Shown here: positions 2,605 through 63,295 of the stretch, piece by piece
Layout of the letters: every line of letters starts with the position of its first letter
How positions within the stretch are numbered: position 1 is the first letter of the stretch
Assembly (NCBI GenBank): GCA_038207395.1
Contig: JBBQZW010000001.1
Span: 77,530-141,529 of the forward strand
Source of the DNA: Minisyncoccia bacterium
GTDB lineage: Bacteria; Patescibacteriota; Minisyncoccia; Phycocordibacterales; Phycocordibacteraceae
DNA: 64,000 nt
Direction: 5' to 3'
Notes under the pieces: model-generated
What the model saw: only the letters and a program-made list of their open reading frames with translations
Told to the model about the DNA's origin: nothing
Database searches by the model: none
Position numbers and translations under genes: made by a program

Positions 2605-5082
2605 ATGGCATCCACTCCAACACATACAGGTAAGAAACTGCTCATCGTCGAGTCACCGGCAAAAGCTCGTACAATCCAGCAGTACCTCGGCTCAGGCTAC
2701 GAAGTGCTTGCTTCGGTGGGTCACGTGCGCGATCTCCCAAAAACGAACAAAGACGCCGTGGATATAGAAGCTGGGTTTGTACCTCGCTACATTATCTCTC
2801 CAGATAAACGAGACGTTATTGAAAAGATCCAAGCGGCTTCAAAGCGTGCCTCAGAGATATTCCTTGCGACTGACCCCGACCGCGAAGGTGAAGCTATTGC
2901 CTGGCACATTAAAGAAGCGGTGGGTCTTAAAAGTCCTAAGCGTGTGGTCTTTCACGAGATCACTAAGGCAGCAGTAGAGGAAGCCCTTGCTCACCCTCGG
3001 CTTATTGATGAAAACCTCCGGGAAGCACAGGAGGCACGCAGAGTCTTAGACCGTATTGTTGGATATGATCTTTCGGGCCTTATTTGGAAGAAAGTTCGCT
3101 ATGGTCTTTCTGCCGGGCGCGTTCAGTCCCCAGCACTCCGTATCCTTGCTGAGCGCGAACGTGAAATCAAGGCGTTTATTCCCGTTACGTATTACGTTCT
3201 TGATGCATTGTTTAAAGCAAAAGGCGGCGAGTTCCCTGCAGTGTGTAGTGTCGAACCAGATTCGGCAGAAGAAGCAGAGCGGATTGTTACCCTTGGCCGT
3301 GCCGCGAAGTGGAAAGTAGCTGACATCACCACCCGCGAAGAGGATCGTAATCCTCGCCCTCCATTCACTACCTCAACTCTTCAGCAAGCAGGATCAACCC
3401 GCCTAGGCTTTTCTCCCTCACGCACCATGCGTGCAGCGCAAAAACTGTACGAAGCCGGGCATATCACCTATATGCGTACGGACTCAGTAAATCTTTCAAA
3501 AGAAGCTATTAGTGTTCTGGGAAAAACTATTGAATCTGAATTTGGTAAAGAATATGTTGCAACGCGGGCGTACGCCACTAAGAGTAAAAATGCACAGGAA
3601 GCACATGAGGCTGTTCGCCCCACGAACCCCGGTATAAAAAAAGCTGGAGCAAATGGCGACGAGGCTGAGCTCTACCAACTCATTCGAAACCGCACCCTCT
3701 CAAGTCAGATGGCTGCGGCACGCGTTGAGCGCACAAACGTTCGTTCAGAAGCTGAAGCGGTTATTCCTGCATTTAGTACAAACGGTTCTCGCGTCATATT
3801 CCCCGGATGGCTTGCATGCGACACAAAGGCACGTGGTGAAGACGTTGAACTCCCAAAGTTGAATATTGGTGACCCCCTCACCGTACTTTCACTGGGGAGC
3901 CTCGAGAAGCAAACCGAACCCCCTAACCGGTACACCGAGGCAGGATTAATTAAAGAGCTTGAAAAGCGTGGCATTGGACGCCCGTCTACCTATGCATCCA
4001 CCATGAAAACAATCCAGGATCGTGGGTACGCAGAAAAAACCGGGCGCACACTAACCCCCACCGCTACCGGCATGGTGGTGTCAGGTTGGTTGGAGGAACA
4101 TTTTGCCGAATATATTTCTGATGCCTTTACTGCTGAGATGGAAGACGAGCTGGATGAGATTGCTCGAGGCGAGCGCGGGTACCGCGCGACCCTTGAAGAT
4201 TTCTATGGTCCTTTTCAAAAAGCCGTTCAGAGTAAAGACTCACTTCCAAAAGCCACCTCGTTAGGAGCTGTGCCAGAAGAATTTACCTGCCCCGTGTGTG
4301 GAGCACCCATGGAGTTCAAACTTGGTCGTGGAGGCATATTCATGAGCTGTACGCGTTACCCAGAATGTACCGGTGCGCGTCAGGAGGATGGTTCGGTTAT
4401 TTCTGCAGATGAACCCCTAGGCATTCATCCTGATACTGGCTTCCCTATCTTTATTCGTACAGGGCGCTTTGGTCCCTATGTAGAAATGCCACTCGAAGAT
4501 ACTCCAGCAGAAGAACCTTCTGTGCCTGAAAGCGAGACGAGCAGTAACACTGAAGCCTCAGACGTTACGCCGGTAAAAAAGGGAACAAAGAAACCTACTA
4601 AGAGCGTGGCTAAAAAGAAGGTTGCGAAGAAGGCGAAGAAACCAAAAATTGCCGCAAAGCGCGCAAGTATTCCCGCAGGCACTGATCTAGGAAGTGTGAC
4701 TCTTGCTGATGCAATCAAATATCTTTCACTTCCTCGTGAACTCGGTATACACCCTGATACTGGCATGCCTGTTGCAGCAAACACAGGGCGCTTTGGGCCA
4801 TACGTCGCGCATAACGGAGAATTCCGTTCGATCAAAAAACTTGACCCCTACACCGTTACGTTTGAGGAAGCAGTTGCGGTGCTGGCTGAACCTAAACGCC
4901 CCCCTCGAGGAGTCGACATTGTTCGAGAGATTGGTGCGCATCCAAAGACTGGAAAAATGCTAACCCTCTATAAATCGAAACAGGGACATTTCCTCAAGAA
5001 AGGCCTGCGCCGCATCTATCTGCCTGAGAGTGAAAACCCTGAAGAGCTTTCGCCACTCGTAGCAGCTGACTATTTGAAATAG
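2605..5082 (+). CDS. topA: DNA topoisomerase I
   Basis: 825 aa with a Toprim N-terminus (LLIVESPAKARTIQQYLG), a topo IA core and a C4 zinc ribbon (CPVCGAPMEFKLGRGGIFMSCTRYPEC). Three C-terminal GIHPDTG..TGRFGPYV repeats are present, with a lysine-rich H1-like tail between them. Confidence 0.9.
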   Translation: MASTPTHTGKKLLIVESPAKARTIQQYLGSGYEVLASVGHVRDLPKTNKDAVDIEAGFVPRYIISPDKRDVIEKIQAASKRASEIFLATDPDREGEAIAWHIKEAVGLKSPKRVVFHEITKAAVEEALAHPRLIDENLREAQEARRVLDRIVGYDLSGLIWKKVRYGLSAGRVQSPALRILAEREREIKAFIPVTYYVLDALFKAKGGEFPAVCSVEPDSAEEAERIVTLGRAAKWKVADITTREEDRNPRPPFTTSTLQQAGSTRLGFSPSRTMRAAQKLYEAGHITYMRTDSVNLSKEAISVLGKTIESEFGKEYVATRAYATKSKNAQEAHEAVRPTNPGIKKAGANGDEAELYQLIRNRTLSSQMAAARVERTNVRSEAEAVIPAFSTNGSRVIFPGWLACDTKARGEDVELPKLNIGDPLTVLSLGSLEKQTEPPNRYTEAGLIKELEKRGIGRPSTYASTMKTIQDRGYAEKTGRTLTPTATGMVVSGWLEEHFAEYISDAFTAEMEDELDEIARGERGYRATLEDFYGPFQKAVQSKDSLPKATSLGAVPEEFTCPVCGAPMEFKLGRGGIFMSCTRYPECTGARQEDGSVISADEPLGIHPDTGFPIFIRTGRFGPYVEMPLEDTPAEEPSVPESETSSNTEASDVTPVKKGTKKPTKSVAKKKVAKKAKKPKIAAKRASIPAGTDLGSVTLADAIKYLSLPRELGIHPDTGMPVAANTGRFGPYVAHNGEFRSIKKLDPYTVTFEEAVAVLAEPKRPPRGVDIVREIGAHPKTGKMLTLYKSKQGHFLKKGLRRIYLPESENPEELSPLVAADYLK

Positions 5083-5107
5083 CTAGATCTAGCGGTACTG
5101 TATAGAG

Positions 5108-6760
5108 ATGACGACGGCTAAGGAGATCATCGCAGTACTGAACGCACCGACTCCGGAGGATATAGCCCTCATAGAAAAGGCATACGCTTTTTCTGAAAAC
5201 GCCCACAAAGATCATAAGCGATATTCAGGTGAACCTTATTTTCTTCATCCAGCCGCAGTTGGAAAGCATCTTGCCGTTATTGGTATGGACGCAGATACCA
5301 TCGCTGCAGGCCTTTTGCACGACTCGGTTGAAGATACCGGAGTGTCTGAGGAAACTATTGAGGCTGAATTTGGTCCTGAAGTTCGGTTTTTAGTTGAAGG
5401 GGTCACCAAACTTGGAAAGCATAAGTACCAAGGCGCTGAACGTCACGCAGAAAGTCTGCGTCGTCTTTTAGTCGCCACCTCTGCTGATGTACGGGTGCTC
5501 ATCATCAAACTTTGTGACCGGTACCACAACATGACGACCCTTGAGCATGTTCCTGAACATAAGCGAAGAAGAATTGCACTAGAGACGCTTGAGATTTATG
5601 CACCACTCGCTGACCGTTTAGGAATGGGAGGGCTTAAGAAAGAACTTGAAGATCTTGCTTTTCCGGCTGTAGACGCCGACGCGTACCAGCATGCTATCGA
5701 GGTACGCAAGCTGAAAACAAAGGAAACAGATGAGGGCTTAGCGCGGGTGCAAAAAGAGTTACAGCACGCACTTGCCCGTCGCGGCATTACGAATTTCAAA
5801 ACAGATATTCGCATGAAAGGATTGTGGAGTTTGCACCAGAAACTTAAGCGTAAGGATGATGATATTACGCGCATTCATGACATTGCCGCGCTCCGGGTTG
5901 TCGTACCTGCTATCGATTATTGCTACACGGCGCTCGGCGTCATTCATTCTCTTTGGAAACCCCTTCCCGGCGAATTTAAAGATTACATTTCATTTCCAAA
6001 ACCAAACGGCTATCAATCACTTCATACAACAGTACTAACGGCAGATGCCGGAATAGTTGAGATGCAGGTTCGTACTGAAGAAATGCATCATCGGGCACAG
6101 TATGGTATTGCTTCACACACGTCGTATAAACAGTTACCGAAGGAAGAGATGAAAAGACTGGGCGATGCAGCTCAAAAACAAGCCTATGAAAAACTATCTT
6201 TCTCTTGGATGCGGGGACTGGTGCCAACCCTCCTTCATTTGCGAAAACGCGACACCGATACCGCTCAGCCCGTAGGCGCGTCAAAAAAGAAGGTAGCAAA
6301 AGTAGCTCCAGCCTGGCTTTCTGAACTCGCTGACGCACATGCACCTGTTGCAGGCAGTGAAGATTTCGTACAAGGACTTCGCCAGGATTTCTTTTCCCAT
6401 CGACTCTTTGTATTTACTCCTCAAGGAGACGTTATCGATCTTCCCGTACACTCAACGCCCATTGATTTTGCCTATGCAATTCATAGCAAGCTCGGAGATC
6501 ATATGAACGGCGCTAAAGTGAATGGCAAACTAGTATCCTTTGATACCATGCTTCGTAATGGTGACGTTGTAGAGATACTTGAAAAAGCAACTGCTCGGCC
6601 AACACGAAAGTGGCTTGACTATGCGCGTACTAGTATGGCGCGAAGACATATTAAACTTATGCTTGACCAGTCTGAACGGGGAACGATTTCTGCACGGGGA
6701 GAACTTAGACCGGTAAAGATTCGAAAGAAGCGAGCGCCGAAAGATGATAAGAAAAAGTAA
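5108..6760 (+). CDS. rel: bifunctional (p)ppGpp synthetase/hydrolase RelA/SpoT family (short form)
   Basis: 550 aa with an HD hydrolase domain (HPAAVGKHL..GLLHDSVEDT), a RelA_SpoT synthetase domain and a TGS domain (FVFTPQGDVIDLP..). No long ACT-domain tail is present. Confidence 0.85.
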   Translation: MTTAKEIIAVLNAPTPEDIALIEKAYAFSENAHKDHKRYSGEPYFLHPAAVGKHLAVIGMDADTIAAGLLHDSVEDTGVSEETIEAEFGPEVRFLVEGVTKLGKHKYQGAERHAESLRRLLVATSADVRVLIIKLCDRYHNMTTLEHVPEHKRRRIALETLEIYAPLADRLGMGGLKKELEDLAFPAVDADAYQHAIEVRKLKTKETDEGLARVQKELQHALARRGITNFKTDIRMKGLWSLHQKLKRKDDDITRIHDIAALRVVVPAIDYCYTALGVIHSLWKPLPGEFKDYISFPKPNGYQSLHTTVLTADAGIVEMQVRTEEMHHRAQYGIASHTSYKQLPKEEMKRLGDAAQKQAYEKLSFSWMRGLVPTLLHLRKRDTDTAQPVGASKKKVAKVAPAWLSELADAHAPVAGSEDFVQGLRQDFFSHRLFVFTPQGDVIDLPVHSTPIDFAYAIHSKLGDHMNGAKVNGKLVSFDTMLRNGDVVEILEKATARPTRKWLDYARTSMARRHIKLMLDQSERGTISARGELRPVKIRKKRAPKDDKKK

Positions 6761-7882: not shown

Positions 7883-7963
7883 GCTGAAGTGGCGGAATGG
7901 TATACGCGGAGGTCTCAAAATCCTCTGCCGCAAGGCTTGTGGGTTCGAGTCCCACCTTCAGCA
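7883..7963 (+). tRNA. tRNA-Leu (anticodon CAA)
   Basis: Acceptor GCTGAAG/CTTCAGC, D arm GCG-GAATGGTATA-CGC, anticodon loop CTCAAAA, long variable arm (TGCCGCAAGGCTTGT) and T arm GTGGG-TTCGAGT-CCCAC. CCA is not encoded. Confidence 0.7.
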
Positions 7964-7980
7964 CTGAGTAGAAGTACGTA

Positions 7981-9266: not shown

Positions 9267-9797
9267 ATGAAGCGCGTTCTCACCATTCTATTTGTGGTTG
9301 TATTTTTTCTCGTATTACTCGGTTTGGTATTATTCAAACTATTTTATACGCCAGAAACAAAAGTTAGTACGCAAGATCAAAAGGATGTTTTTGCTTCAGT
9401 AACAGTTTCAAATGTCCCGGCAATCGATGTATCCCCTGAAGAAATTACACGCCAGTGTTTCACTTCGTATATAAAGTATTACACTTCAGTGGATACCATC
9501 TCATACGAACTAGTTTCAAATAATCCTACTATCCAACGTTGTTTTACTAGTAGTCTAATTGCGTCATGGGAAGAGTCTTATGCAGTTTCAGAAACAGATC
9601 CTATTTTAATATCAGGTGAATATTACGATTCTTGGATAACTCAAATACGAGCCACTGTAGTGAGTCGTCTATCACAAACAAGTTCCGTAGAACTTGTTCT
9701 CGGTACAGGGTCTGAGGAACACCACCTCTTTGTGGGACTTCTATATACAAATACTGGCTGGCACATTAGTTCAGTATCGGCAGGAGAACAATTCTAA
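9267..9797 (+). CDS. hypothetical membrane-anchored protein
   Basis: 176 aa with an N-terminal TM (ILFVVVFFLVLLGLVLF) and an extracytoplasmic remainder. Sits in an AT-richer region, with no recognisable domain. Confidence 0.45.
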   Translation: MKRVLTILFVVVFFLVLLGLVLFKLFYTPETKVSTQDQKDVFASVTVSNVPAIDVSPEEITRQCFTSYIKYYTSVDTISYELVSNNPTIQRCFTSSLIASWEESYAVSETDPILISGEYYDSWITQIRATVVSRLSQTSSVELVLGTGSEEHHLFVGLLYTNTGWHISSVSAGEQF

Positions 9798-9807
9798 GAT
9801 ACACGGA

Positions 9808-10770
9808 CTAGATACTGCAGACTCCTTTGTTTATTGTTATATCCCAGTGTGATGACTCCCGCGCGTATTCGTTACCGCATCTATCTTTATACAATTTAGT
9901 ACCGTCCTTACGGCTTCCTGTTTGGTTTAGTGATTTTAGAAAAGCATCAAGCGCAGCATTAGGCTGCAGGTCAACCTTGTACCCGGTAGAGTGACTGACG
10001 GCACCCGTAGCCTTATGCGTTCCTCCTGTAGTGGAGTTGACTTGGACGGAACAGCCGCATGCTTTTTTAATAGCAATCACTTGGTTTACGGTGTCGGCTC
10101 TTGTATTTGCCATAGTCGCAGTTCCCGAAAACTTCGCAATACTTACGCCTCCAGAAGTTAAGGCACTTCTTGTTTGACTATCATTAAGTACCGTACCAGA
10201 GACTGATCCTGCAGATGGACCTACTGCAGTTGAACCAATATTTTTACCCAAAAGAATATCAATAGTTCCCTCAGCAAGCGAGGTTGGTGCCTTAGCAACG
10301 ATACACCTGTCGCTCTGATCTGCTTTACCACTAATTATAGAGTTCCATGGACCGAAAGAGCCTTCGTCGTACACCGTCTTCATTACGTAATCCACGATGA
10401 GCCACGAAAGGAGGAGTACCGCTAAGCCAATGATTACATTTGTGAGTCTCGTGCGTGCTTTGCTTATGGACTCAGGACTTCCACCACTGGTGAGAAATGA
10501 TAAACCTGCGATAAGCAGATATATCGTGAAAAGAATTATGGCAACAGTAACGGCAAAGTTAATGACGTTTTGAACCGTTTGCATAACGCAGCCAAAATCT
10601 GGTGCAGTTGAAATCGTCCCACCTCCATTTGGATTAGGCTGGTCATTGCAGTGACATTCCTGCGGAACAATAGGACCAAGGAATGTCGGATTTGAAGCTG
10701 CAAACGAGTACTGTGGCATTGCGAGCAGAAGAAGGCTCAAGAATGCTCCTGCTATGACAGTTCGCTTCAT
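9808..10770 (-). CDS. pilin-like 2-TM module (TrbC/VirB2-like) fused to a Cys-containing extracellular domain (paralog A)
   Basis: 320 aa. It has a signal peptide, a CHC..APDFGC Cys cluster, TM1, a charged SKARTR loop, TM2, an IVDYVMKTVY motif and an FGPWNSI motif. This N-terminal ~135-aa module is collinear with ORF 11308-12318 and with the five small ORFs at 24849-26934. The C-terminal ~170 aa have several Cys and no recognised fold. Confidence 0.6.
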   Translation of the reverse strand: MKRTVIAGAFLSLLLLAMPQYSFAASNPTFLGPIVPQECHCNDQPNPNGGGTISTAPDFGCVMQTVQNVINFAVTVAIILFTIYLLIAGLSFLTSGGSPESISKARTRLTNVIIGLAVLLLSWLIVDYVMKTVYDEGSFGPWNSIISGKADQSDRCIVAKAPTSLAEGTIDILLGKNIGSTAVGPSAGSVSGTVLNDSQTRSALTSGGVSIAKFSGTATMANTRADTVNQVIAIKKACGCSVQVNSTTGGTHKATGAVSHSTGYKVDLQPNAALDAFLKSLNQTGSRKDGTKLYKDRCGNEYARESSHWDITINKGVCSI

Positions 10771-10784
10771 GTCACTATTCTAAC

Positions 10785-11300
10785 TTATTGCGGAAGCTTT
10801 ACCGCCCCAGGACAAAAACTGAGTCCTAGATCCTGACCTGCATAGGTTTCATTCACACTAATACTGGTGAAGACTTGCACCTGGAGTTCACAGATCTGAG
10901 TAGTGCTAAGGCCGAGCTTCGCTTTCAATTCCTTTTCAGCAGCGAGCCGAGACGCACCAAGTGGTTCAGCAAGTAGCGATACAAGAAAGCCAGTAGTATT
11001 TGGGTAATAGAGGATTGAGTACGTAGTTTCCTCGTCAGTAGTAACTTGGTATCCATTAGTATCGCTCGCCCACTCTGGTTGCCCTGAGACAATAAATGGC
11101 TGTACCGCGGCGGAAGTTCCGTCTTTGAGTGTTAACGATACCGTCTCCCCTACCGCTACCGGTGTTCCAGTCGCAAAGGTAAAAGGATTATTTACCGGAA
11201 TGGCTTCAGGCGCAGGAGTAGGGAAAACGAAGATGCGTATTAGTGCTCCAATCACCAGTAGCGTGAGAATGATTGAAGAGAGTACTAGAAGTCGTTTCAT
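10785..11300 (-). CDS. hypothetical membrane-anchored/secreted protein
   Basis: 171 aa with an N-terminal TM/signal (LLVLSSIILTLLVIGALIRIF). Sits between the two pilin-like fusion genes. Confidence 0.5.
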   Translation of the reverse strand: MKRLLVLSSIILTLLVIGALIRIFVFPTPAPEAIPVNNPFTFATGTPVAVGETVSLTLKDGTSAAVQPFIVSGQPEWASDTNGYQVTTDEETTYSILYYPNTTGFLVSLLAEPLGASRLAAEKELKAKLGLSTTQICELQVQVFTSISVNETYAGQDLGLSFCPGAVKLPQ

Positions 11301-11307
11301 ACAGAAA

Positions 11308-12318
11308 TTATTTAAAGGGCACGCTACATTTATTTGATGAATATGACCACGGCTGAAAGCCTCTCGAATTAAATAACTTGCATGCCTCTGCAGTATTGTA
11401 CGTGGGATTCTGTGCGGCCTTCACGCATGAATTATACAATTCTTGATCTTTAACTGAGGCCGTACACCACCCTGGATGTGATTTTCCTACCAGCGCACTT
11501 CCCTGGCATGCGGTGGTAAACGCTGCCGGACAGTTTAAGCCCGCTACTTTACTTGTCGTTAGGTTTATCTGCCACAATCCAACCGAGTAACTTGGGCCCT
11601 TACCGCTGTTCAAAAGATCCGACCCAGATTTAATTGAAGAATTGCCGCCGGCACTTTCAAGATTACATACACGAGCAGCTTCGTTCGCGCGAGCTCCAAA
11701 GCAGGTACCCTGTAGTGCTGAAACAGAACAGGCGCCGTTGTTAGGAACTGAGCATGACCCTCCACCTCCTGTACCATTTCCAAACTGCGCGCTTGGAGAA
11801 CTTCCTGCTTCACCGAGTTTTAGTGGGATAGTACCGGTTGCAAGCGGTGATGGATCATGTTCTTTAATACATTCATCTCCAGGAGTCGGTGAAAGTATCG
11901 AGTTCCATGGACCAAATACCGTTCCTTCAAATGCAGTATCAGGGTTGTATACGGTCTTCAGTACAAAGTCGACAATTATCCACGAGCTGAGTATGACCGC
12001 AATACCAATGACGGCATTAAATATTCGTGTACGTGCCTTTGAAAGTGCTTCGGGATTTCCTTGACCAAGCATTAGTGAAAACCCAGCAATGATAATCCAA
12101 ATGACACTAAGAATAATGCCGAACTCTACCGCAGCATTAATTACGTTTTGTAACACTTGGAGAATACATCCGTAGTCAGGAGCAGATCCTGGGCAGTAGC
12201 AGGTACTACCGAGTTGAGGAACGATAGGGTTGGTTGCTCCAAAGGCAATGTACGGAAGGGTAAGGATTAAGAATCCAAACGCAGCTGCAGTGTAGGGTGC
12301 CAAGGGGAAACGCGTCAT
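11308..12318 (-). CDS. pilin-like 2-TM module fused to an Rpf/lytic-transglycosylase-like domain (paralog B)
   Basis: 336 aa. The N-terminal module is paralogous to 9808-10770 (CYC..APDYGC, SKARTR loop, IVDFVLKTVY, FGPWNSI). The C-terminal region (..CNLESAGGN..YSVGLWQIN..GFQPWSYSSNKC) matches the Rpf/transglycosylase-like signature (CESGGNW..GL(Y)Q..W..C), including the catalytic Glu. Confidence 0.6.
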   Translation of the reverse strand: MTRFPLAPYTAAAFGFLILTLPYIAFGATNPIVPQLGSTCYCPGSAPDYGCILQVLQNVINAAVEFGIILSVIWIIIAGFSLMLGQGNPEALSKARTRIFNAVIGIAVILSSWIIVDFVLKTVYNPDTAFEGTVFGPWNSILSPTPGDECIKEHDPSPLATGTIPLKLGEAGSSPSAQFGNGTGGGGSCSVPNNGACSVSALQGTCFGARANEAARVCNLESAGGNSSIKSGSDLLNSGKGPSYSVGLWQINLTTSKVAGLNCPAAFTTACQGSALVGKSHPGWCTASVKDQELYNSCVKAAQNPTYNTAEACKLFNSRGFQPWSYSSNKCSVPFK

Positions 12319-12439
12319 GAGATATCCTTATAGTACGTTATGGAGCAGCGAAAAAGGCACGATTCCCCCAGTACGCCTGTCTGTCTAAGGACCGTAAAAT
12401 CTGGTATCGTGCAAAGTAACGCACTGCGCGTTACCCCAA

Positions 12440-12510
12440 GGGCCTGTAGTTTAATGGTAGAACAATGGATTCCAAACCCATTAGCCGAGGTTCGATTCCT
12501 CGTGGGCCCG
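12440..12510 (+). tRNA. tRNA-Trp (anticodon CCA)
   Basis: Acceptor GGGCCTG/TGGGCCC (two G-U pairs), anticodon loop TTCCAAA and T arm CGAGG-TTCGATT-CCTCG. Confidence 0.65.
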
Positions 12511-12638
12511 CATCTAATCCGTGCTTTATTTTATAGATTTTAAAATTGAGAATTTATAGCTTGCCAAGGGTGAGTAATAGTTTGATTTATCTACTAAGTG
12601 TGATATAAACTTAGCGTAGATTAATTTGGAGAAGTTCC

Positions 12639-13055
12639 TTGCAAGAAAGCTCATTAGCCATTTTGGCAGAAATTCACAGCCGTCTTTCGCATCTTATTTC
12701 GGAACTTATTTCGGAAAATGAAATCTGTTTAATTCCTAAGCGACTACGGCTCACCAATCCCAATAGAGTTTTTCTAGGACAATCGTCACGAGAGCAGCAG
12801 GCAATAGCCAGGCTCTATGATCAAATCTGTACCGAACATACAGACACGCATGAAGATACTGGACTTCCTGAAGGAGTTAATCCCCGGGTAAGTTTCGATC
12901 ACTATTTCAACCACGTAGCAGCTCCACTGCTGTCAGAGCTGCTAATTTGGTCAGCTCACAGGGATTACCCTGATGTATCGGAAACAATATCCATCATTGC
13001 GATTCAGTTCGATGCTGACTGGAACATGTACGCAGTAAAGAAAGATCAGTATTGA
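12639..13055 (+). CDS. hypothetical protein
   Basis: 138-aa ORF downstream of tRNA-Trp in an AT-rich block. No recognisable domain. Confidence 0.4.
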   Translation: MQESSLAILAEIHSRLSHLISELISENEICLIPKRLRLTNPNRVFLGQSSREQQAIARLYDQICTEHTDTHEDTGLPEGVNPRVSFDHYFNHVAAPLLSELLIWSAHRDYPDVSETISIIAIQFDADWNMYAVKKDQY

Positions 13056-13208: not shown

Positions 13209-13679
13209 TTAGCTAGCTTGGTCCCGCATCGCGAGCTTCACGATGATCTCCGCGTCTTCACGCGAAAGCGACTTGATTTGCTCTGCGAGCTCTTGGAGTG
13301 ACAGTAGGATTAGATTCTGACGCTCATGGAATTCGATGAAGAGCGCGCCATAGAACGCTGGCTGGGATCGCCATTGCGTACTCGACGAACTGAGGAGCTG
13401 ATCGCAGAACTGTTCGAAGGTATAGCCCCTAACGACCGGCCGTCTCAATACGAGACTTGGATCTGATTTTTTGTATTTAATGTCATCGAACAAATAGTTC
13501 GTCATCTGATCACCACGTAGGTGGGCATGCCAAACAGTCTCCAGGTGCGCGAGACAATATTGGACATCCTGTACGATATCCAACGAGTCACTTTGCTGCG
13601 GAACCGCGCCCAGCAGCGATTCCGTTTGCGGGGTCTTCCGACCCCCAAACGTAGGACGAATAACATTATCTTCTGACAC
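13209..13679 (-). CDS. hypothetical protein
   Basis: 156-aa ORF convergent with 12639-13055. No recognisable domain. Confidence 0.4.
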   Translation of the reverse strand: MSEDNVIRPTFGGRKTPQTESLLGAVPQQSDSLDIVQDVQYCLAHLETVWHAHLRGDQMTNYLFDDIKYKKSDPSLVLRRPVVRGYTFEQFCDQLLSSSSTQWRSQPAFYGALFIEFHERQNLILLSLQELAEQIKSLSREDAEIIVKLAMRDQAS

Positions 13680-24815: not shown

Positions 24816-24850
24816 ACCGGCCCCTTTCTACTAAGGGGCCGGTTTTCTTT
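24816..24850. terminator. bidirectional rho-independent terminator
   Basis: Hairpin CCGGCCCCTT-tctact-AAGGGGCCGG followed by TTTTCTTT. Separates the convergent plus-strand SPFH pair from the minus-strand pilin array. Confidence 0.65.
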
Positions 24851-25124
24851 ATCCCCCTACAACCTTCCTTAGTATCTCTACAATCGTTCGTGCTCCAAAG
24901 AGTATCGTAAGCCCCACAAGACCATATATGAGGTGCTGCTGGCCTGTTTTTCGCTTCTCTTCATTATCGGCACCGCGTATAAACTCAAACACTCCATAGG
25001 CAAAAAGAATGAAGGCGAGTAAGGCCAAAACGGTTATTGCCGGGTTAATAATTTGATCTTGAACTTTTGTGACAAAGGCGTGAAAGGAATCCATTAGGGT
25101 AATAATAGCAGAAGCCCGCGGCAT
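24849..25124 (-). CDS. small 2-TM pilin-like protein (TrbC/VirB2-like), paralog 1 of 5
   Basis: 91 aa with TM1, the loop GADNEEKRKTGQQ and TM2. The last gene of the tandem array. Confidence 0.6.
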   Translation of the reverse strand: MPRASAIITLMDSFHAFVTKVQDQIINPAITVLALLAFILFAYGVFEFIRGADNEEKRKTGQQHLIYGLVGLTILFGARTIVEILRKVVGG

Positions 25125-25161
25125 TGCCGCGGGCTTCTGGTGGAGAATACTGAATCTTCAG

Positions 25162-25548
25162 CTAGTTAGAAACGCGTATGTTATCAGCGCTAGGCAAACC
25201 GTTTCCTGGAACAGGACGGTTGTTGTTAAGTCCTACGGTTCCCGTAAGAATACGAACAAGTCCCCATACTGAAACCATAACAAAGAAACCAATAATGCCA
25301 TAAATCATTACCTGCTTTCCCTTATCACGCTTCTCTGCATCTGCTGCTCCCGCAATGAAGTACATGAAGATACCAACAATGAACACAATGAAGGCGAGCG
25401 CGAAGACGAGAGGAACGGCAATGTTGTTAATGAAGTCAACAACAAACTTTGAGAGATCCTGGATGCTGTTAATTGACTGGCCTGGCGCCTGCGCAAACGC
25501 AAGAGCGGGAACGAAGAGCGAAAGGCCTGCTAGGGCAAACTTTTTCAT
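25162..25548 (-). CDS. small 2-TM pilin-like protein, paralog 2 of 5
   Basis: 128 aa with a signal peptide (..ALAFAQA), TM1, the loop AGAADAEKRDKGKQ, TM2 (..VWGLV) and a short C-terminal tail. Confidence 0.6.
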   Translation of the reverse strand: MKKFALAGLSLFVPALAFAQAPGQSINSIQDLSKFVVDFINNIAVPLVFALAFIVFIVGIFMYFIAGAADAEKRDKGKQVMIYGIIGFFVMVSVWGLVRILTGTVGLNNNRPVPGNGLPSADNIRVSN

Positions 25549-25646
25549 ACGATAAGTAGGGATTCAATAAGTAGTACTTGTTAAGCATAAACCTCTGAGG
25601 CGTAGCGTCAATGCATGCCTGGGGACGGAGCCCTGGCAAGAATGAA

Positions 25647-26093
25647 CTAATTTTTGATTTGTCCTCCGTACGCACTACAGTCTGCAGCACTCACTTTTAC
25701 TGAGCTGCCTGAAGACAGCACACAGGTAATGCCTGTTTGACCAGGGGCGGTGAAGTCATTTGGTAGTCCACGGGTGTCAGAGGCGCCCGTTCCTGAACAA
25801 TTACTTGTCTCACTGAACGTAGGGAGACACGGACGATTCGTATTATCAAATCCAAAAGTGTTTACCACTAAGTTTACGAGTCCCCATACTGACATCATGA
25901 CCGCAAAGCCAATCACTGAGTACAGAATAATCTGCCCCCCCGTGGCGCGCTTCTCAGGATTGTCTGCGCCCGCAATCATGTAGCGGAACACGCCGAACAA
26001 GAAGATGATGAAGGCAACAGCAAATACGAGTGGCACCAATACGTTATTAATAAAATCAATGAATGAGACTATGATTGCCGTGATCTTTGCCAT
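25647..26093 (-). CDS. small 2-TM pilin-like protein, paralog 3 of 5
   Basis: 148 aa with TM1, the loop AGADNPEKRATGGQ, TM2 (..VWGLV) and a Cys-containing C-terminal tail of about 70 aa. Confidence 0.6.
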   Translation of the reverse strand: MAKITAIIVSFIDFINNVLVPLVFAVAFIIFLFGVFRYMIAGADNPEKRATGGQIILYSVIGFAVMMSVWGLVNLVVNTFGFDNTNRPCLPTFSETSNCSGTGASDTRGLPNDFTAPGQTGITCVLSSGSSVKVSAADCSAYGGQIKN

Positions 26094-26110
26094 ACAAAAA
26101 GTATACCGTG

Positions 26111-26437
26111 TTAGGTGTTAAAACTTCCGAGAATGCCGAGCATTACGCGCACAAATCCCCACACCGCAAAGAGTGCTACAAAACCGATAATTCCGTATAT
26201 AGCAAAATACTTCCCCTTTTCTCGATTTTCAGGGTTTGCTGAAAAGAAAAGTCGCACCATGCCGATGAGAAATACGATAAATGAGAGTGCATATAGGAGC
26301 GTGATAATAGTGTTCCCAAAAGGCACTACTTGCGTGTCAACAATTTCTTTAAAGGATTTTGCGTAGGTAGTCACTGGGATCAGTGCTGCTGACACGACGG
26401 GCAATGCGCCAAGTGAAAGATTCGATATCCTACTCAT
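26111..26437 (-). CDS. small 2-TM pilin-like protein, paralog 4 of 5
   Basis: 108 aa with TM1, the loop SANPENREKGK and TM2 (..VWGFV). Confidence 0.55.
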   Translation of the reverse strand: MSRISNLSLGALPVVSAALIPVTTYAKSFKEIVDTQVVPFGNTIITLLYALSFIVFLIGMVRLFFSANPENREKGKYFAIYGIIGFVALFAVWGFVRVMLGILGSFNT

Positions 26438-26934
26438 GGTCGTAGCGAGGTAACGGTTGAAGTAATTACTTCTTTGATGGCTGCAGCTCCAAGGATTATC
26501 AGCCCTCCAATAATCGTGAACATGAGTGCTCTTCGTGCCTTACTAATATTTTCTTCATTACCTCGTGCAGCAACGAATAGAAAACCCGTATAGATAAGTG
26601 CGAGCGTAAGAATGATGCTTCCGAGCTCAATAGCGGCAGCTAGCAGACCGTCGAGTAGTTCATTAAGTGAATTGAATTTGAGTGGATTTGCAAGCCTACC
26701 AGCATTTGAGGTTTCTCCCTGGTCTGTTGGATTATTGTTAGTTACTCCTTGCCCAGTTGGAGAGCCTATATTTCCATTAGTAGAAGGAGTGTTTGAGATT
26801 CCTCCTTTACCATTTTCCGCATGAGTCACTGTGGGCAAAGAACTTATACTTACGCCTAGGGTAAGAAGTACCGCAATTGTTAGGCCGGCAATCTTTGTTA
26901 CAAGATGTGCAGATCGATAATTAGAATGAGGCAT
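26434..26934 (-). CDS. small 2-TM pilin-like protein, paralog 5 of 5, with a Gly/Asn/Thr-rich N-terminal extension
   Basis: 166 aa with a signal/TM, a low-complexity G/N/T-rich spacer, TM1, the loop ARGNEENISKARR and TM2. The SKAR loop matches the loops of the large paralogs A and B. Overlaps the upstream SBP-like gene by a few nucleotides. Confidence 0.55.
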   Translation of the reverse strand: MPHSNYRSAHLVTKIAGLTIAVLLTLGVSISSLPTVTHAENGKGGISNTPSTNGNIGSPTGQGVTNNNPTDQGETSNAGRLANPLKFNSLNELLDGLLAAAIELGSIILTLALIYTGFLFVAARGNEENISKARRALMFTIIGGLIILGAAAIKEVITSTVTSLRP

Positions 26935-29072: not shown

Positions 29073-31541
29073 CTAAAGCGCAACCATCGAAGCAATTGAA
29101 TCGCCTTCACGCATTTTCATAATGCGCACACCCTGAGTAGCGCGTGAGAGACTTGGGATCTCTCCTGCTGAAACGCGGATAACCTGCCCCTTCTTCGAAA
29201 TAACGACAATCTCTTCTTCCTTTGCTTCGTCTCCAATAAGCACGCGTGCGCCGATAATTTCACCCGTCTTTGGCGTGACGTCAGCAGTCTTAATACCGGA
29301 GCCCCCTCGTCCTTGAATCTTATACTCAGTAAGCGGCGTTTTCTTTCCGTAGCCGTTCGCCATAATGATAAGGAGTGACGCGTTCTTAGGGTCAGCATTC
29401 ACGACTTCAGCGGAAACAATGCGGTCATCACCCTTAAGAGCCATTCCACGAACACCAGCCGCCGTGCGTCCCATTGCGCGCGTCTCAGCTTCTTCAAAAC
29501 GAATACTCTGTCCCTTTGAAGTAACGATAGAGATACTATCTTCAGCAGCCGTAAGATGTGCAGCCACAAGACGGTCATCTCCCTTGAGGTTAATAGCAAT
29601 GATTCCTGAGCGTCGAACATCTGCGAATGCCTTTGCCTCCACCTTCTTAATAGTTCCCTGATCGGTTACAAGGAATACGGAAAGCGCATCGCGTGCCGCT
29701 CCCTTTGGAGTTGCAAGTACACTTGTAACTTTTTCGTCAGAGGTCATTGAAAGGAAGTTCATAATGGACTTTCCTTTCGTCGCACGCTTTCCTTCAGGAA
29801 TTTCGTACATTTTTGTCTGATATACCTTTCCTTTATCTGTAAAGAAAAGAAGGTCACTGTGTGCAGATGCTTTAAGGAAATGCGTCACCACGTCTTCTTC
29901 CTTTGTTGAAATATCGATAACACCAACTCCCCCACGCTTCTGCGCTTTGAATTCGTCGGGATTATTGCGCTTTACGTATCCGCCTGCCGTAAGTACCAAA
30001 ACGCTATCTTCGTCAGGAACGAGGTCTTCTACAGAAATATTTTTCACGCCACCCTTCACGATCTTAGTGCGTCGTGCGTCAGAATATTTATCCGCAAACT
30101 CAGAGAGTTCACTTCGTACCACAGCAAGGATATTCTTTGCAGAAGAAAGAATCTTCTTGAGCTTAGCGATAAGAATCTGGAGCTCGGCAAGTTCGTCTTC
30201 AATTTTCTTACGCTCAAGACCCGCAAGCGTCTGAAGACGCATGGCGAGAATAGCGGCTGTCTGGCGCTCTGAGAACGCGAACTTTTTAATAAGATTCTTT
30301 GATGCCTCAGGAACATCCTTAGACTTCTTTATGATTGCGATCACCTCATCAATGTGATCAAGCGCTTTTGAAAGGCCGAGGAGGATGTGTTCACGTTCTT
30401 CTGCTTTTCGAAGCTCGTATTCAGTTCGACGCTTTACGACAAGCTGGCGGTGCTTTACGAACTCTTCGAGCATTCCCTTAAGAGAAAGGGTTTGCGGCAC
30501 GCCGTCCACGAGCGCGAGCATGTTGTAGTGGAACGTGCTCTCAAGTTCTGTGTGTTTGTAGAGGGTATTTAAAACAGCCTGAGGATGCGCCGTTCCTTTG
30601 AGCTCAACCACTACGCGAATGTCCGCAGTTGACTCGTCCCGAAGATCCTTAATACCTTCAATCTTTTTGTCTCGTACCAAATCAGCGATGCGAGTAATAA
30701 GATCCGACTTATTAACGCGGAATGGAATGGAGGTGATGATAATGTTTGTACCCTTTTTATCTTCAATGATTTCCGCTTCACCACGAACTACCACGCCGCC
30801 ACGCCCACCCGTGTACGCGTGTTTAATATCAGCCTGATTAAAGGCAATACCACCCATTGGGAAATCCGGTCCTTTAACAAACTGAAGAAGGTCGTCGGTG
30901 GTAGCTTCTGAGTTATCTATCAAATGCATGGTCGCGTCAGCAACCTCGCGCAGGTTATGAGGCGGAATGTTCGTCGCCATACCCACTGCAATGCCGAGTG
31001 CACCATTAAGGAGGAGGTTCGGTGCTGCCGCAGGCAGCACCGTTGGCTCCTGCTTTGAACCATCAAAGTTCGGTGCCCAGTCCACGGTTTCCTTTTCAAG
31101 ATCACGAAGCATTTCGTCCGCAACGCGTGACATACGTGCTTCGGTATAACGATACGCAGCGGCAGGATCTCCATCGATAGAACCGAAGTTTCCCTGACCT
31201 TGAACGAGCGGGTAGCGCGTCGTGAAGTCCTGCGCGAGTTTTACCATTGCCTCATACACGGAAGAGTCTCCGTGTGGGTGGTACGAACCGAGCACTTCTC
31301 CGACTACGGTCGCTGACTTACGGAACTTAGCGGTAGGGGTGAGACCGGTCTGACGCATCGCGAACAAAATACGACGATGCACAGGCTTCAAACCGTCACG
31401 CACATCAGGAAGCGCGCGCGAAGTAATAACGGACATCGCATAGTCCAAATACGAAGATCGCATCTCAGTCGTGATTGACTGGTCAATTATATTTTCGATA
31501 GCCTTAGGCTCTCCTGGTACGGGTGCTTCGTTCTTTGCCAT
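29073..31541 (-). CDS. gyrA: DNA gyrase subunit A
   Basis: 822 aa with a GyrA N-terminal breakage-reunion domain (..[21 protein letters not shown].., active-site Tyr region) and C-terminal beta-pinwheel repeats. No gyrB is adjacent. Confidence 0.9.
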
Positions 31542-60862: not shown

Positions 60863-63295
60863 TTACTTAGTTAGCGCTGGCGTGGCTACTGGTGCCTTAC
60901 CGTCACTAACGGTTGTCTGAGGAATTCCTAACTGACCCTGGCGCGCAGGAGGAAAGGGATTCTTTCCAATCTTAAGAAGCGCGATATCAGCCTCCACCGC
61001 TTTTGCGTTCTCTGCTGAAATATTAGAGATTGCCGTTAGCTGATCGAGAGCTTGAGGGAACTGACCCTTATTTGCATACCCTACCGCAAGGAAGAATCGT
61101 GCATTTGAGTACTGCGTATTCTGCTGGACAGCAGCACTAAGGGCAGCAATTGCTCCGTCCGTATTTCCTGTTCCAAGTCGAAGAATACCTACCTGGAAGA
61201 GAACGTTTGGATCGTTAGGAGCGAAGTACAGTGCAGCTTCAGCTGCCTGCAATGCTTCCTTTGCCTTACCTTCCTGAACCTGAAGCTGTGAGAGGAGGAG
61301 CGTTGCCTGTGTGTAATCACGCTTCAATCCTATAGCCTTAGTAAGCTCTGCTTCCGCAGCTGCTCCGTTACCCTGCGCAATTTCAAGCTGTGCAAGAGCA
61401 AATGGAAGCGTTGGGTTTGTTGGGTTAAGCGCTATAGCTTTAGCGTACGCAGCCTTTGCGTTGTCATAAGCTCCCTGAATTTTGAGGGGTACAACAGCCT
61501 GGTACACATTTCCGAGCACTACCCAGTTGCGATAGTTGTTCGGTGCAATCTGTGTGGCAAGCGTTGAGGCCTGGATACCCGTAGAAAGGGCGGCCTGGAA
61601 CTGCTGCTGTGCCTGAGATGCAGAGAGGGTTGTATCGTTCGCTATGGTTTGCATCTGTGAGATGCTTGCCGCAGCTGCTAACTGATAGGCGCGATCAGAA
61701 GGAGCAAACAAGAGTGAACGGTTTATGTCAGCAGATCCCTTTTGAAGGTTCCCTGCATTCAAGCTTTGTACTGCTTGTGCGTAGGCAACACTACCTAAGT
61801 AGCGCTCAACCACTACGTATGCGGCTACCACTGAAGCTAGGAGCAAAAGAGTAAGGCCGAATACAATTACGAATCCAAGTCGTGGATTACGGCTGAAGAT
61901 AATTCCCCATTCACGACGACTTCCGCCGTAGCGAAGTGAAGATACGAACAATCCAGCCAAGAAGAATCCTGAGACAAGCACTACGGGGCCAGGATTGGTT
62001 GCAAGCGCAAGGACCAGTACGTAACTTGCTCCTACGAATGAGGCAATTGATACGAATCGAGCGTACGACTCTTCAGGAGCACGGAAGAGAAGCGTACGGA
62101 TACCAATGAAGAAGAACAAGCCAAGGAAGCCGAGCCACGCAAGTAGTCCAACAATACCTGTTGTTATGGCTGATGTTGGAATGACACCAATGCCTGAGGT
62201 GAAATCAATGTTCCAGAAGACCGTATCATTAAGCGTTCGGTCACGGAATGCGAGCCACTGAGAACCAAACGTTCCTGGACCAGATCCGAAGAGTGGTGAG
62301 GATGCGTAGGTGTGACTCCCCACGTCAAACGTAGACTGCCACGATGGACGAACATCAAGATAATTCGTACCGACAGCATTAACGAGTGATGCGCCAATAG
62401 TACTTCCTCCAATAAGGAAGAAGAGAGAGACGACGAGTACTGCAAGAGGCGCAGCAAGATTCTTCGTTTCTGAACTTTGAATCGGTTCTGCATCAAGTGA
62501 TACTTCTGATACTCCGTCGAAATCTTCATCAGCAGACATCGGAGCGCGACGCATGATTGCTTCGATAAAGAGTCCAAGCGCTGTAAGTGCAACAAGTGCC
62601 CAGATAAAACCTGAGTTCACGAGTGCGATAGCAATAAGCGCAATTGCCCCTGTAATCCAAACAAAACGCTTCGTTAGTGTTTTGAGTGAAAGAAAACGGA
62701 GCGCAAGAAGTGAGATGGTAATACCAAGACCTGCAAGCATGCCGAGGTCAGAGAATGTTCCAACTACGTTTGCGGTTGGTGAGAACTTTCCACTTGCAAC
62801 ATGTCCCAAGATAAGGAATACCACCTGGGCAGCAAGTAGGAGTGCGTACACAATACTCGCAACTTTAAAGAAGATGCGGTACTGCGCTGAGCGGCGGAAC
62901 GTAAGCGCAACGATAGTAGCGAATGCAGCGAGAATAACCATGAAGCCAAGAGTGTCGGTTTCAAGTTCAGTACCTAAGAGTCCTGCGCGAAGACCTCCTC
63001 CAGAGAAGAGACTTGAGAGCAGGTATGCTGCAGGCACAAGCCAGAACGCTCCAAGGAGTGTTGCTGGCGGAACGATAATGTTCCCGCGCGTAAGGCGCGC
63101 GAGTATATACAGCGCAAGCGCAATGATGCCGCCAATGGCGACGATTGATACTTTGCTATATATGAACGGGATCGTCGCTGACGGTATAAATGCCAGCGCC
63201 GCGACTGCACCAGTAAGGACTAACGCCCATACGGCGAGTGTGTCGAACGTTACGCGTCGTGGGTTTGACGCTGAGGGGACGGTTTGTATGTCCAT
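60863..63295 (-). CDS. O-antigen-ligase/Wzy-like polytopic membrane protein with C-terminal TPR repeats
   Basis: 810 aa. There are about 12 TM helices in the N-terminal 480 aa, including a large periplasmic-loop region. The C-terminal ~300 aa are TPR-like (..AYDNAKAAYAKAIALNP.., ..LLSQLQVQEGKAKEALQAAEAALYFAPNDP..). Confidence 0.45.
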   Translation of the reverse strand: MDIQTVPSASNPRRVTFDTLAVWALVLTGAVAALAFIPSATIPFIYSKVSIVAIGGIIALALYILARLTRGNIIVPPATLLGAFWLVPAAYLLSSLFSGGGLRAGLLGTELETDTLGFMVILAAFATIVALTFRRSAQYRIFFKVASIVYALLLAAQVVFLILGHVASGKFSPTANVVGTFSDLGMLAGLGITISLLALRFLSLKTLTKRFVWITGAIALIAIALVNSGFIWALVALTALGLFIEAIMRRAPMSADEDFDGVSEVSLDAEPIQSSETKNLAAPLAVLVVSLFFLIGGSTIGASLVNAVGTNYLDVRPSWQSTFDVGSHTYASSPLFGSGPGTFGSQWLAFRDRTLNDTVFWNIDFTSGIGVIPTSAITTGIVGLLAWLGFLGLFFFIGIRTLLFRAPEESYARFVSIASFVGASYVLVLALATNPGPVVLVSGFFLAGLFVSSLRYGGSRREWGIIFSRNPRLGFVIVFGLTLLLLASVVAAYVVVERYLGSVAYAQAVQSLNAGNLQKGSADINRSLLFAPSDRAYQLAAAASISQMQTIANDTTLSASQAQQQFQAALSTGIQASTLATQIAPNNYRNWVVLGNVYQAVVPLKIQGAYDNAKAAYAKAIALNPTNPTLPFALAQLEIAQGNGAAAEAELTKAIGLKRDYTQATLLLSQLQVQEGKAKEALQAAEAALYFAPNDPNVLFQVGILRLGTGNTDGAIAALSAAVQQNTQYSNARFFLAVGYANKGQFPQALDQLTAISNISAENAKAVEADIALLKIGKNPFPPARQGQLGIPQTTVSDGKAPVATPALTK

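Follow-up and report, generated by a model that had tools for sequence, protein, structure and literature searches.

The VirB2/TrbC-type pilins described from Patescibacteria (PF18895; PMC12102498, PMC10633639) are proteins of about 90-170 aa with a signal peptide, two transmembrane (TM) helices and a short basic loop, and those encoded in arrays share on average 25% identity (PMC12102498). The S. epibionticum locus for a type IV secretion system (T4SS) is called essential; SEML1_0006 and SEML1_0007 flank virB4 near six pilin genes there, and at least five of the six (SEML1_0014-0016, 0018 and 0019) have a PF18895 row (PMC10633639). In this source, SEML1_0006 (643 aa) is given two lysozyme-like domains plus a cysteine proteinase and SEML1_0007 (1,113 aa) a C-terminal Hedgehog/DD-peptidase domain; both are scored essential, and the transposon-sequencing (Tn-seq) columns, considered here for SEML1_0006-0008 and the pilins SEML1_0018 and SEML1_0019 only, read GD/ES/ES (PMC10633639). 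In monoderm bacteria, VirB1-type two-domain hydrolases such as PrgK and TraG unite an SLT and a CHAP domain (PMC12102498). Here we describe a locus in which pilin and hydrolase-like domains are fused. It lies in a stretch of 64,000 nucleotides from a Minisyncoccia bacterium of the Patescibacteriota (contig JBBQZW010000001.1, positions 77,530 to 141,529; the window) and encodes two proteins, paralogs A and B, that join a VirB2-like hairpin to different C-terminal domains.

The initial annotation had recognized paralogs A and B as a pair and had located both reading frames correctly. It had omitted the strand, which is minus, and had missed that both genes belong to a conserved three-gene operon at a fixed locus of the core genome. 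The gaps between paralog B, a gene for a 171-aa protein (middle gene) and paralog A measure only 7 nt and 14 nt, which is why we regard the three genes as an operon, below also called the cassette. A scan for sigma-70 promoters and terminators around it returned a number of sites not above that in shuffled sequence. With moderate confidence we read the operon as encoding a glycosidase and a peptidase tethered by pilin hairpins, an enzyme pair that would open the cell wall locally at the site where pilins are handled, together with a small anchored accessory protein. Its parts are as follows.

11308-12318, minus strand: paralog B, operon gene 1, 336 aa; signal peptide, VirB2-like hairpin, linker and lysozyme-fold domain
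12238-12318, minus strand: signal peptide of B, residues 1-27, with the hydrophobic segment 10-29 and a cleavage site (IAFG/AT) predicted from the sequence
11869-12237, minus strand: pilin-like module of B, residues 28-150; CxC/GC N-terminal extension, TM1, SKARTR loop, TM2, FGPWNSI, Cys150
11758-11868, minus strand: Gly/Ser/Pro-rich linker of B, residues 151-187; 25% mean identity in orthologues; the model starts here with pLDDT below 50
11311-11757, minus strand: lysozyme-fold domain of B, residues 188-336, 10 Cys
11653-11658, minus strand: candidate catalytic Glu221-Ser222 of B (E-S motif)
11563-11580, minus strand: GLWQIN motif of B
10785-11300, minus strand: middle gene, operon gene 2, 171 aa; N-terminal TM anchor and extracytoplasmic domain of ~140 aa
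9808-10770, minus strand: paralog A, operon gene 3, 320 aa; signal peptide, VirB2-like hairpin, linker and LAS-like domain
10303-10698, minus strand: pilin-like module of A, residues 25-156, from the Pfam T4SS_pilin match, hydropathy and motifs
9811-10194, minus strand: A-type C-terminal domain, residues 193-320
9970-9996, minus strand: putative metal-binding or catalytic His252, His260 and Asp267 of A (SHSTGYKVD)
9841-9858, minus strand: putative metal-binding or catalytic Glu305, His308 and Asp310 of A (ESSHWD)

The pilin-like module shared by paralogs A and B

Paralogs A and B are 39% identical over 251 aa (BLASTP, E 4e-41), far above chance, and are thus true paralogs; their C-terminal halves share no significant similarity and have different folds, as had been proposed. 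The collinear N-terminal module is present in both, and it extends to about residue 170 and not over ~135 aa only. In each protein a signal-like segment is followed by an extension with the pattern CxC...GC and by two hydrophobic segments around the basic SKARTR loop; after TM2 come IVD(Y/F)V.KTVY...FGPWNSI, a fourth Cys, a Gly/Ser/Pro-rich linker and the Cys-rich C-terminal domain. Hydropathy places the hydrophobic segments at residues 5-23, 62-97 and 107-134 of A and at residues 10-29, 52-87 and 97-124 of B. All motifs listed in the initial annotation were found again: CxC is CHC at residues 39-41 of A and CYC at residues 40-42 of B, and APD(F/Y)GC, QNVIN, SKARTR, IVD(Y/F)V(M/L)KTVY and FGPWNSI are common to both proteins. 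A single one, LQ(T/V)VQNVIN, had been miswritten; at this place paralog A has MQTVQNVIN and paralog B LQVLQNVIN. The Cys residues are even in number, three before TM1 plus one after TM2, and lie on both outer flanks of the hairpin; judging from the sequence, both ends of the module are probably located outside the membrane.

The module is a pilin hairpin of the VirB2/TrbC type. Paralog A matches Pfam PF18895 (T4SS_pilin) with 36.3 bits over residues 65-129, above the cutoff of 26.6, and B with 26.5 bits over residues 54-119, that is 0.1 bit below this cutoff. Precomputed annotation nevertheless puts PF18895 on most homologues of B, including the entry with the exact sequence (P0001). A match to TrbC/VirB2 (PF04956) is weaker than that to PF18895, and the NCBIfam model for a pilin-like conjugal transfer protein matches the module of B with an E of 1e-5. 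Among orthologues of B the hairpin is 45% identical, compared with 48% for the catalytic domain, 29% for the signal peptide and 25% for the linker; in A the pilin module reaches 48%, and signal peptide and linker together 27%. The hairpin (45-48%) is therefore as well conserved as the catalytic domains, while signal peptides and linkers remain at 25-29%.

The likeness to the small pilin-like open reading frames (ORFs) of the window, which had also been claimed, is correct because five tandem ORFs at 24849-26934 match the same family. Identity in the module is 55% between A and B and 20-28% between either of them and these small pilins. The array is located downstream of an SBP-like ORF, a methyltransferase gene and gyrA.

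24849-26934, minus strand: array of five genes for small VirB2-like pilins outside the operon, all matching PF18895; 91-166 aa, 11-55% pairwise identity
26921-28210: SBP-like ORF, 429 aa, adjoining the pilin array
29073-31541: gyrA, near the pilin array

The C-terminal domains and the middle protein

Paralog B ends in a disulfide-rich, extracytoplasmic domain of the lysozyme fold. CNLESAGGN, YSVGLWQIN and GFQPWSYSSNKC, on which an Rpf/transglycosylase-like assignment had been based, are all present, and their core residues are conserved in relatives. Homologues (n=107, about 81 of them with the full architecture) stem, wherever the source is named, from Paceibacterota, Patescibacteria or a plain 'bacterium'. 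An alignment of 28 sequences shows complete or almost complete conservation of E-S, S..D, Y-S-x-G-L-W-Q-x-N-L-T, a C-terminal W and ten Cys, with E-S, G-L-W-Q-x-N and W unchanged throughout. Glu221-Ser222 is identical in 28/28 and at least 90% conserved across the 81, which agrees with the earlier designation of a catalytic Glu; in the structural model of B, a predicted helix (33-46) terminates at this candidate residue. Fold comparison places the domain among lysozyme-like folds, with Bombyx c-type lysozyme (score 8.8) ahead of alpha-lactalbumin (7.6), Slt (6.2) and RpfB (5.9), followed by DslA (5.8), EtgA (5.6), MltC (5.6) and phiKZ gp144 (5.5).

Of the earlier assignment, the lysozyme-like muralytic fold holds and membership in the Rpf family does not. 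Scans of the C-terminus with hidden Markov models (HMMs) gave matches to SLT_3 and to SLT (12.9 bits, cutoff 21.3), both below threshold; SLT_3 is matched by 26 of the 28 relatives at E <=0.1, with a best value of 1.4e-5. PF06737 was matched neither by the B domain (E up to 10) nor by any of the 28 relatives (E up to 0.1), and RpfB is a mid-ranking fold match and not the closest structural relative, for which reasons the Rpf identity was rejected. Family scans and fold ranking together thus support a lysozyme-like fold with Glu221 as candidate catalytic residue. By eye, GLWQIN resembles GILQIN of lysozyme; in this register the invariant Ser would fall at the position of Asp52 and a single-carboxylate, SLT-like mechanism would therefore be favoured. 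B may cleave the glycan strand, either as a lytic transglycosylase or as a muramidase.

For the C-terminal domain of paralog A the initial annotation had asked about a CHAP or NlpC/P60 hydrolase. This candidate was rejected, as there was neither a CHAP or NLPC_P60 match nor a papain-like fold match. Pfam was not matched at all, be it with 18 members at E up to 1 or with 144 members at E up to 0.01, and no sequence match was obtained in the PDB with the domain singly or as an 18-sequence profile; sequence and profile searches of the PDB with the B domain, the A domain and the middle protein ended at chance level. Paralog A itself has 44 homologues. The A-type domain, which matched no Pfam-A model, is much more widespread: an exhaustive profile search retrieved 1,865 cluster representatives at E <=1e-3 and 1,097 at E <=1e-10. 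Among the 144 top representatives, T4SS_pilin occurs in 96 and TrbC in 16, so that the association with the pilin module is persistent and specific; a few carry SLT, Lysozyme_like, WXG100, eCIS_core or Peptidase_C39 instead.

His252, Gly256, His260, Gly263, Lys265, Asp267, Arg287, Glu305, His308, Trp309 and Asp310 are fully or nearly invariant in these 144 proteins and form the family motifs GH-x3-G-x2-SH-x2-GYK-x-D and E-x2-HWD. LAS zinc peptidases show the spacing H-x6-D and E-x2-H in VanX/VanY and GHH-x5-H-x6-D in the Hedgehog N domain. Paralog A has H260-x6-D267 and E305-x2-H308-W-D310, the same spacing, and its motifs are in register with NH..G.A.D and [DE]xxHW of the VanY fusions treated below as well as with H141, D148, E177 and H181 of ShhN. 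Two further motifs, TGGTE.GH and CGNEY, are specific to the A-type family; the Glu of the former is conserved in ~90% of the family and absent from paralog A of the window. An AlphaFold2 model of the domain has a core with pLDDT 84-96, and the loop with His260 is not confident. Foldseek against the PDB yielded nothing significant; the sole match with a sensible TM-score was ShhN, and Hedgehog N domains are the best LAS fold matches. A profile of 141 A-type sequences aligned collinearly with a VanY profile (score 22.1 vs 12.2 +/- 2.3 for shuffles) and with ShhN (20.7 vs 12.2 +/- 2.2); 0/100 column- or residue-shuffled controls reached the score in either case. The corresponding hhalign values (E 0.007-0.014, probability <6%) stay short of a significant LAS profile match. 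Taking this convergent but weak evidence together, we are fairly confident that A carries a divergent LAS-type domain (Hedgehog/DD-peptidase, M15-like); as a LAS-type zinc peptidase it would cleave a peptide stem or cross-link.

Outside pilin fusions, the A-type domain was encountered in P0252, a protein of 2,312 aa (domain at residues 1739-1891), and in P0178, P0242, P0262, P0286, P0288 and P0290. Its occurrence, in single cases, alongside WXG100, eCIS_core and Peptidase_C39 suggests that it also serves as an effector module in other secretion systems.

The middle gene directly follows the lysozyme fusion in all loci with readable downstream sequence. Its product is clade-specific; two of its Cys are invariant, as is a GLSFC motif close to the C-terminus, and the 63 homologues found carry no Pfam match. 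Searches of Pfam, NCBIfam and the PDB gave no match, i.e. no recognisable relatives of known function. In one relative (L011) the middle gene is present as a tandem duplicate (4880-5413 and 5435-5959), the second copy of which is 31% identical to the window protein.

Conservation of the locus and exchange of modules

Synteny is strict across the clade. Within a sample of 16 species-representative genomes and several metagenomic contigs, all loci with enough flank have the order clpB ... pilin-lysozyme fusion, protein of ~170-200 aa, second pilin fusion, miaA, parB, relA, topA, and they keep it down to ~30% identity. The C-terminus of gene 1 is lysozyme/SLT-like in every locus read. That of gene 3 is A-type in the window, L002 and L027, whereas at least six sister species (L005/L019, L008, L012, L013, L016 and L017) have a VanY domain in its place, which matches the M15B structures YodJ, VanY and LdcB with E down to 2e-10. 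Three further types are characterized by SCHYGGR..AVDF..NHLHV (L007/L020), CHxxGTCxD..HFSVY (L010/L011/L026) and ACAW..GDL..NHVG (L014/L025). Pfam and PDB searches with these three returned only a faint NLPC_P60 match for the last type (L014, E 0.16); by their motifs they may be LAS-like or NlpC/P60-like, and VanY is the one secure assignment. L003 and L004 lack gene 3. In L023 one protein of 485 aa (P0165), consisting of pilin module, canonical SLT domain (E 2.6e-17) and A-type domain, replaces the whole cassette beside miaA-parB-relA-topA, and P0199 has the enzymes in reverse order (pilin, A-type domain, SLT). Through these triple fusions and positional replacements, the A-type domain is linked in function both to a partner that cleaves glycan and to peptidases acting on peptidoglycan.

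Several other genes accompany the cassette. Convergent with paralog A is a 176-aa ORF (9267-9797, plus strand) with an N-terminal TM helix and a weak DUF3828-like match (E 0.0055); L002 and L017 have it conserved in the corresponding place, and it may therefore be a fourth member of the neighbourhood. A tRNA-Trp (CCA) gene (12440-12511, plus strand) is oriented divergently ~120 nt upstream of paralog B, and an ORF overlapping it (12340-12543) is probably spurious. Two ORFs between cassette and clpB (12639-13055, plus strand; 13209-13679, minus strand) have no family match, and a tRNA-Leu (CAA) gene (7883-7964, plus strand) is found beside parB. Farther away, the window encodes an 810-aa protein (60863-63295, minus strand) with TPR repeats in the last ~200 residues only and ~600 N-terminal residues without assignment. 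In L002 (12386-12811) and L026 (11781-12428), unlike in the window, miaA and parB are separated by an inserted ORF that resembles LAGLIDADG homing endonucleases. L027 encodes a 785-aa protein made of two successive D-Ala-D-Ala ligase units (Dala_Dala_lig_N/C twice; 3839-6196) a few kb upstream of the cassette.

Proposed function of the operon and comparison with known systems

In the mechanism we favour, both peptidoglycan-degrading enzymes would be exported via Sec and each be tethered by its VirB2/TrbC-type hairpin, and the pilin module would act as a targeting device rather than as a passive anchor. The destination may be a T4SS or pilus assembly site or the pilus itself. There, B would cut glycan and A peptide, so that the two jointly open the wall at this point, in a division of labour like that in PrgK and TraG. 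The wall that is cut would most likely be the cell's own, letting a pilus or channel through; a host wall may also be concerned. MurJ is encoded in the window and the organism thus builds its own peptidoglycan. We consider the module more than an anchor because of the conservation of the hairpin, because of the S. epibionticum locus and because in a distant relative (L022) an array of the order gyrA-SBP-pilins, syntenic with the gyrA/SBP-like/five-pilin region of the window, also contains a pilin-lysozyme fusion and a mid-like gene. The comparison with a VirB1 fused to a VirB2, drawn in the initial annotation, is reasonable and finds a parallel in the T4SS locus of S. epibionticum.

Several observations weigh against this interpretation. 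The SLT_3 match of paralog B remains below the curated cutoff (21.9 bits vs 27). A tie of B to c-type lysozyme at the sequence level found no support: hhalign of the B family profile against hen egg-white lysozyme, local and global, did not rise above shuffles, 3/60 of which reached the score, and the alignment was out of register. An Asp equivalent to lysozyme Asp52 could not be established in B. Genes for VirB4, VirB6 or VirD4 occur neither in the 64-kb window nor, in the loci examined, in the 10 kb to either side of the cassette. The window ORFs that reach 550 aa or more are all housekeeping genes or the TPR protein; an unassigned ORF of the size of VirB4 is found neither there nor within +/-10 kb in the related loci, and an 812-aa ORF beside the L022 pilin array, considered as VirB4, proved to be gyrA. 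Since the cassette never adjoins T4SS core genes in the loci examined, it departs from VirB1-type enzymes, which are encoded within the T4SS, and the connection to a T4SS is therefore drawn from the pilin fold, L022 and analogy. Finally, we know of no experimentally studied VirB2-type pilin that bears a globular domain of 130-150 aa, and incorporation of the fusions into a pilus is therefore speculative.

A role as a weapon or drill directed at a host appears unlikely to us. The fusions would then be minor or tip pilins, built into a VirB2-like pilus and digesting the wall of host or prey where the two cells meet, and the middle protein an immunity protein or inhibitor that shields the producer. 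The topology of VirB2-type pilins, the C-terminus of which lies outside the membrane, would suit such a role. At this one locus, at least five types of enzyme module have replaced one another in gene 3, as would be expected of host-interaction genes, and in all readable loci the gene after the lysozyme fusion encodes a small, anchored extracytoplasmic protein, like the second half of an effector-immunity pair. The company of the A-type domain (WXG100, eCIS_core, Peptidase_C39, the 2,312-aa protein) is that of secreted effectors, and the T4SS cluster and pilin series of Saccharibacteria are reported to be essential for epibiotic growth, the Tn-seq rows considered for pilins being those of SEML1_0018 and SEML1_0019 only. 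However, the cassette is single-copy, vertically inherited and bound to one fixed core locus even at ~30% identity, unlike variable effector loci, and its lysozyme domain and middle protein are well conserved and not diversifying. On steric grounds it is hard to see how a helical VirB2 filament would accommodate a 15-kDa domain. The link to an actinobacterial host raised as a possibility in the initial annotation found no support either: nothing pointing to such hosts turned up for this clade, and the relatives are environmental Paceibacteria/Parcubacteria.

The fixed place among clpB, miaA, parB, relA and topA in all loci with enough flank, and the lack of T4SS genes nearby in those examined, would be expected of housekeeping autolysins for growth, division or daughter-cell separation that have merely borrowed a pilin-derived anchor and work independently of any T4SS or pilus. 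For wall turnover, even a reduced genome requires a minimum of one glycosidase and one peptidase, and murJ is present. We nevertheless regard this as quite unlikely: a generic anchor would not be expected to equal the catalytic domains in conservation and to exceed the signal peptides by far, the lysozyme fusion and mid-like gene of L022 sit inside an array of small pilins, and the same pilin module is found on 96/144 diverse A-domain proteins.

Just as doubtful is an extension of the pilus idea, according to which the fusions assemble together with the small VirB2-like pilins as minor pilins bearing enzymes, the pilus, with a glycan-cutting and a peptide-cutting activity on its tip or shaft, bores through peptidoglycan, including that of a host, for epibiotic feeding contact, and the A-type domain is a new and widespread LAS branch used by type VII secretion systems (WXG100) and eCIS, too.

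That the lysozyme-like and LAS-like domains are non-catalytic, peptidoglycan- or glycan-binding adhesins on a pilin stalk is very improbable, since Glu-Ser in B and His/Asp/Glu/His in A are invariant over hundreds of millions of years of divergence, as in active enzymes, positionally equivalent genes bear bona fide VanY with intact motifs and canonical SLT domains stand in for B in the triple fusions, even though alpha-lactalbumin, which ranks second among the fold matches of B, and the Hedgehog N domains, which lead the LAS matches of A, are non-enzymes, B has no established Asp52 equivalent and paralog A of the window lacks the TGGTE.GH Glu that is ~90% conserved elsewhere.

Our preferred reading, a tethered enzyme pair opening the wall where pilins are handled, draws on known elements: this family of pilins, the folds of lysozyme and of VanY, and hydrolases of the VirB1 type as a concept. 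Automated annotations already show the combinations PF18895+PF18896 and PF18895+PF02557. The literature searched contained no description of pilin-hydrolase fusions, of an operon of pilin-lysozyme, accessory protein and pilin-peptidase, of module swapping, of triple fusions or of the A-type family. The one genetically tractable Patescibacterium cannot do without VirB2-like pilins and a T4SS, and to our knowledge nobody knows what this apparatus does or how a pilus passes a monoderm wall. The operon is a concrete candidate for the missing wall-opening function and may show how a patescibacterial pilus crosses the wall. With the A-type domain, it also brings to light a family of at least 1,865 clusters that is usually fused to pilins and probably belongs to the Hedgehog/DD-peptidase superfamily. 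As the module of gene 3 has been exchanged repeatedly (A-type, VanY and at least three others), the locus constitutes a natural experiment on which peptidoglycan bonds need cutting.

Among described enzymes, the domain of B shares with family-1 lytic transglycosylases, SLT_3 and SLT the fold, the E-S motif followed by G-L-x-Q and the sub-threshold HMM matches. Rpf (PF06737) differs in that it is not matched by HMM, is about half the size of the B domain, is outranked as a fold match by c-type lysozyme, alpha-lactalbumin and Slt and has an actinobacterial connection that is missing here. With the LAS metallopeptidases (VanX/VanY of M15, MepA, the Streptomyces Zn DD-peptidase and Hedgehog N domains), paralog A has in common H-x2-G-x3-D and E-x2-H(-W-D), a spacing identical to that in VanX/VanY and ShhN (GH-x6-H-x6-D), recurrent fold matches and positional equivalence with the VanY fusions. 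It differs from them by the absence of any Pfam or PDB sequence match at any threshold, by the family-specific TGGTE.GH and CGNEY motifs and by a statistical support that is moderate.

Signal peptide, two TM helices, short basic loop and HMM match liken the fusions to the patescibacterial pilins (PMC12102498, PMC10633639), to which they add an enzyme domain of 130-150 aa via a flexible linker. The identity of the A/B module (45-55%) exceeds the average in pilin arrays, and the fusion genes do not adjoin virB4. SEML1_0006 and SEML1_0007 likewise associate lysozyme-like and Hedgehog/DD-peptidase folds with VirB2-like pilins in a Patescibacterium; they are large, lie beside virB4 and have no PF18895 listed, whereas the proteins of the window are small, fused to pilins and encoded at another locus. 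The likeness of the two sets is one of fold. Compared with PrgK of pCF10 and TraG of pIP501 (PMC12102498), the cassette uses a pilin hairpin and not an ordinary TM helix as anchor, distributes the activities over two paralogous genes outside a T4SS cluster and employs a LAS/M15-like or VanY peptidase in place of CHAP. What it shares with these apparently T4SS-dedicated enzymes is the combination of lysozyme/SLT-type glycan cleavage with peptide cleavage, and in some relatives (P0165, P0199) both activities are, just as in PrgK and TraG, united in one polypeptide.

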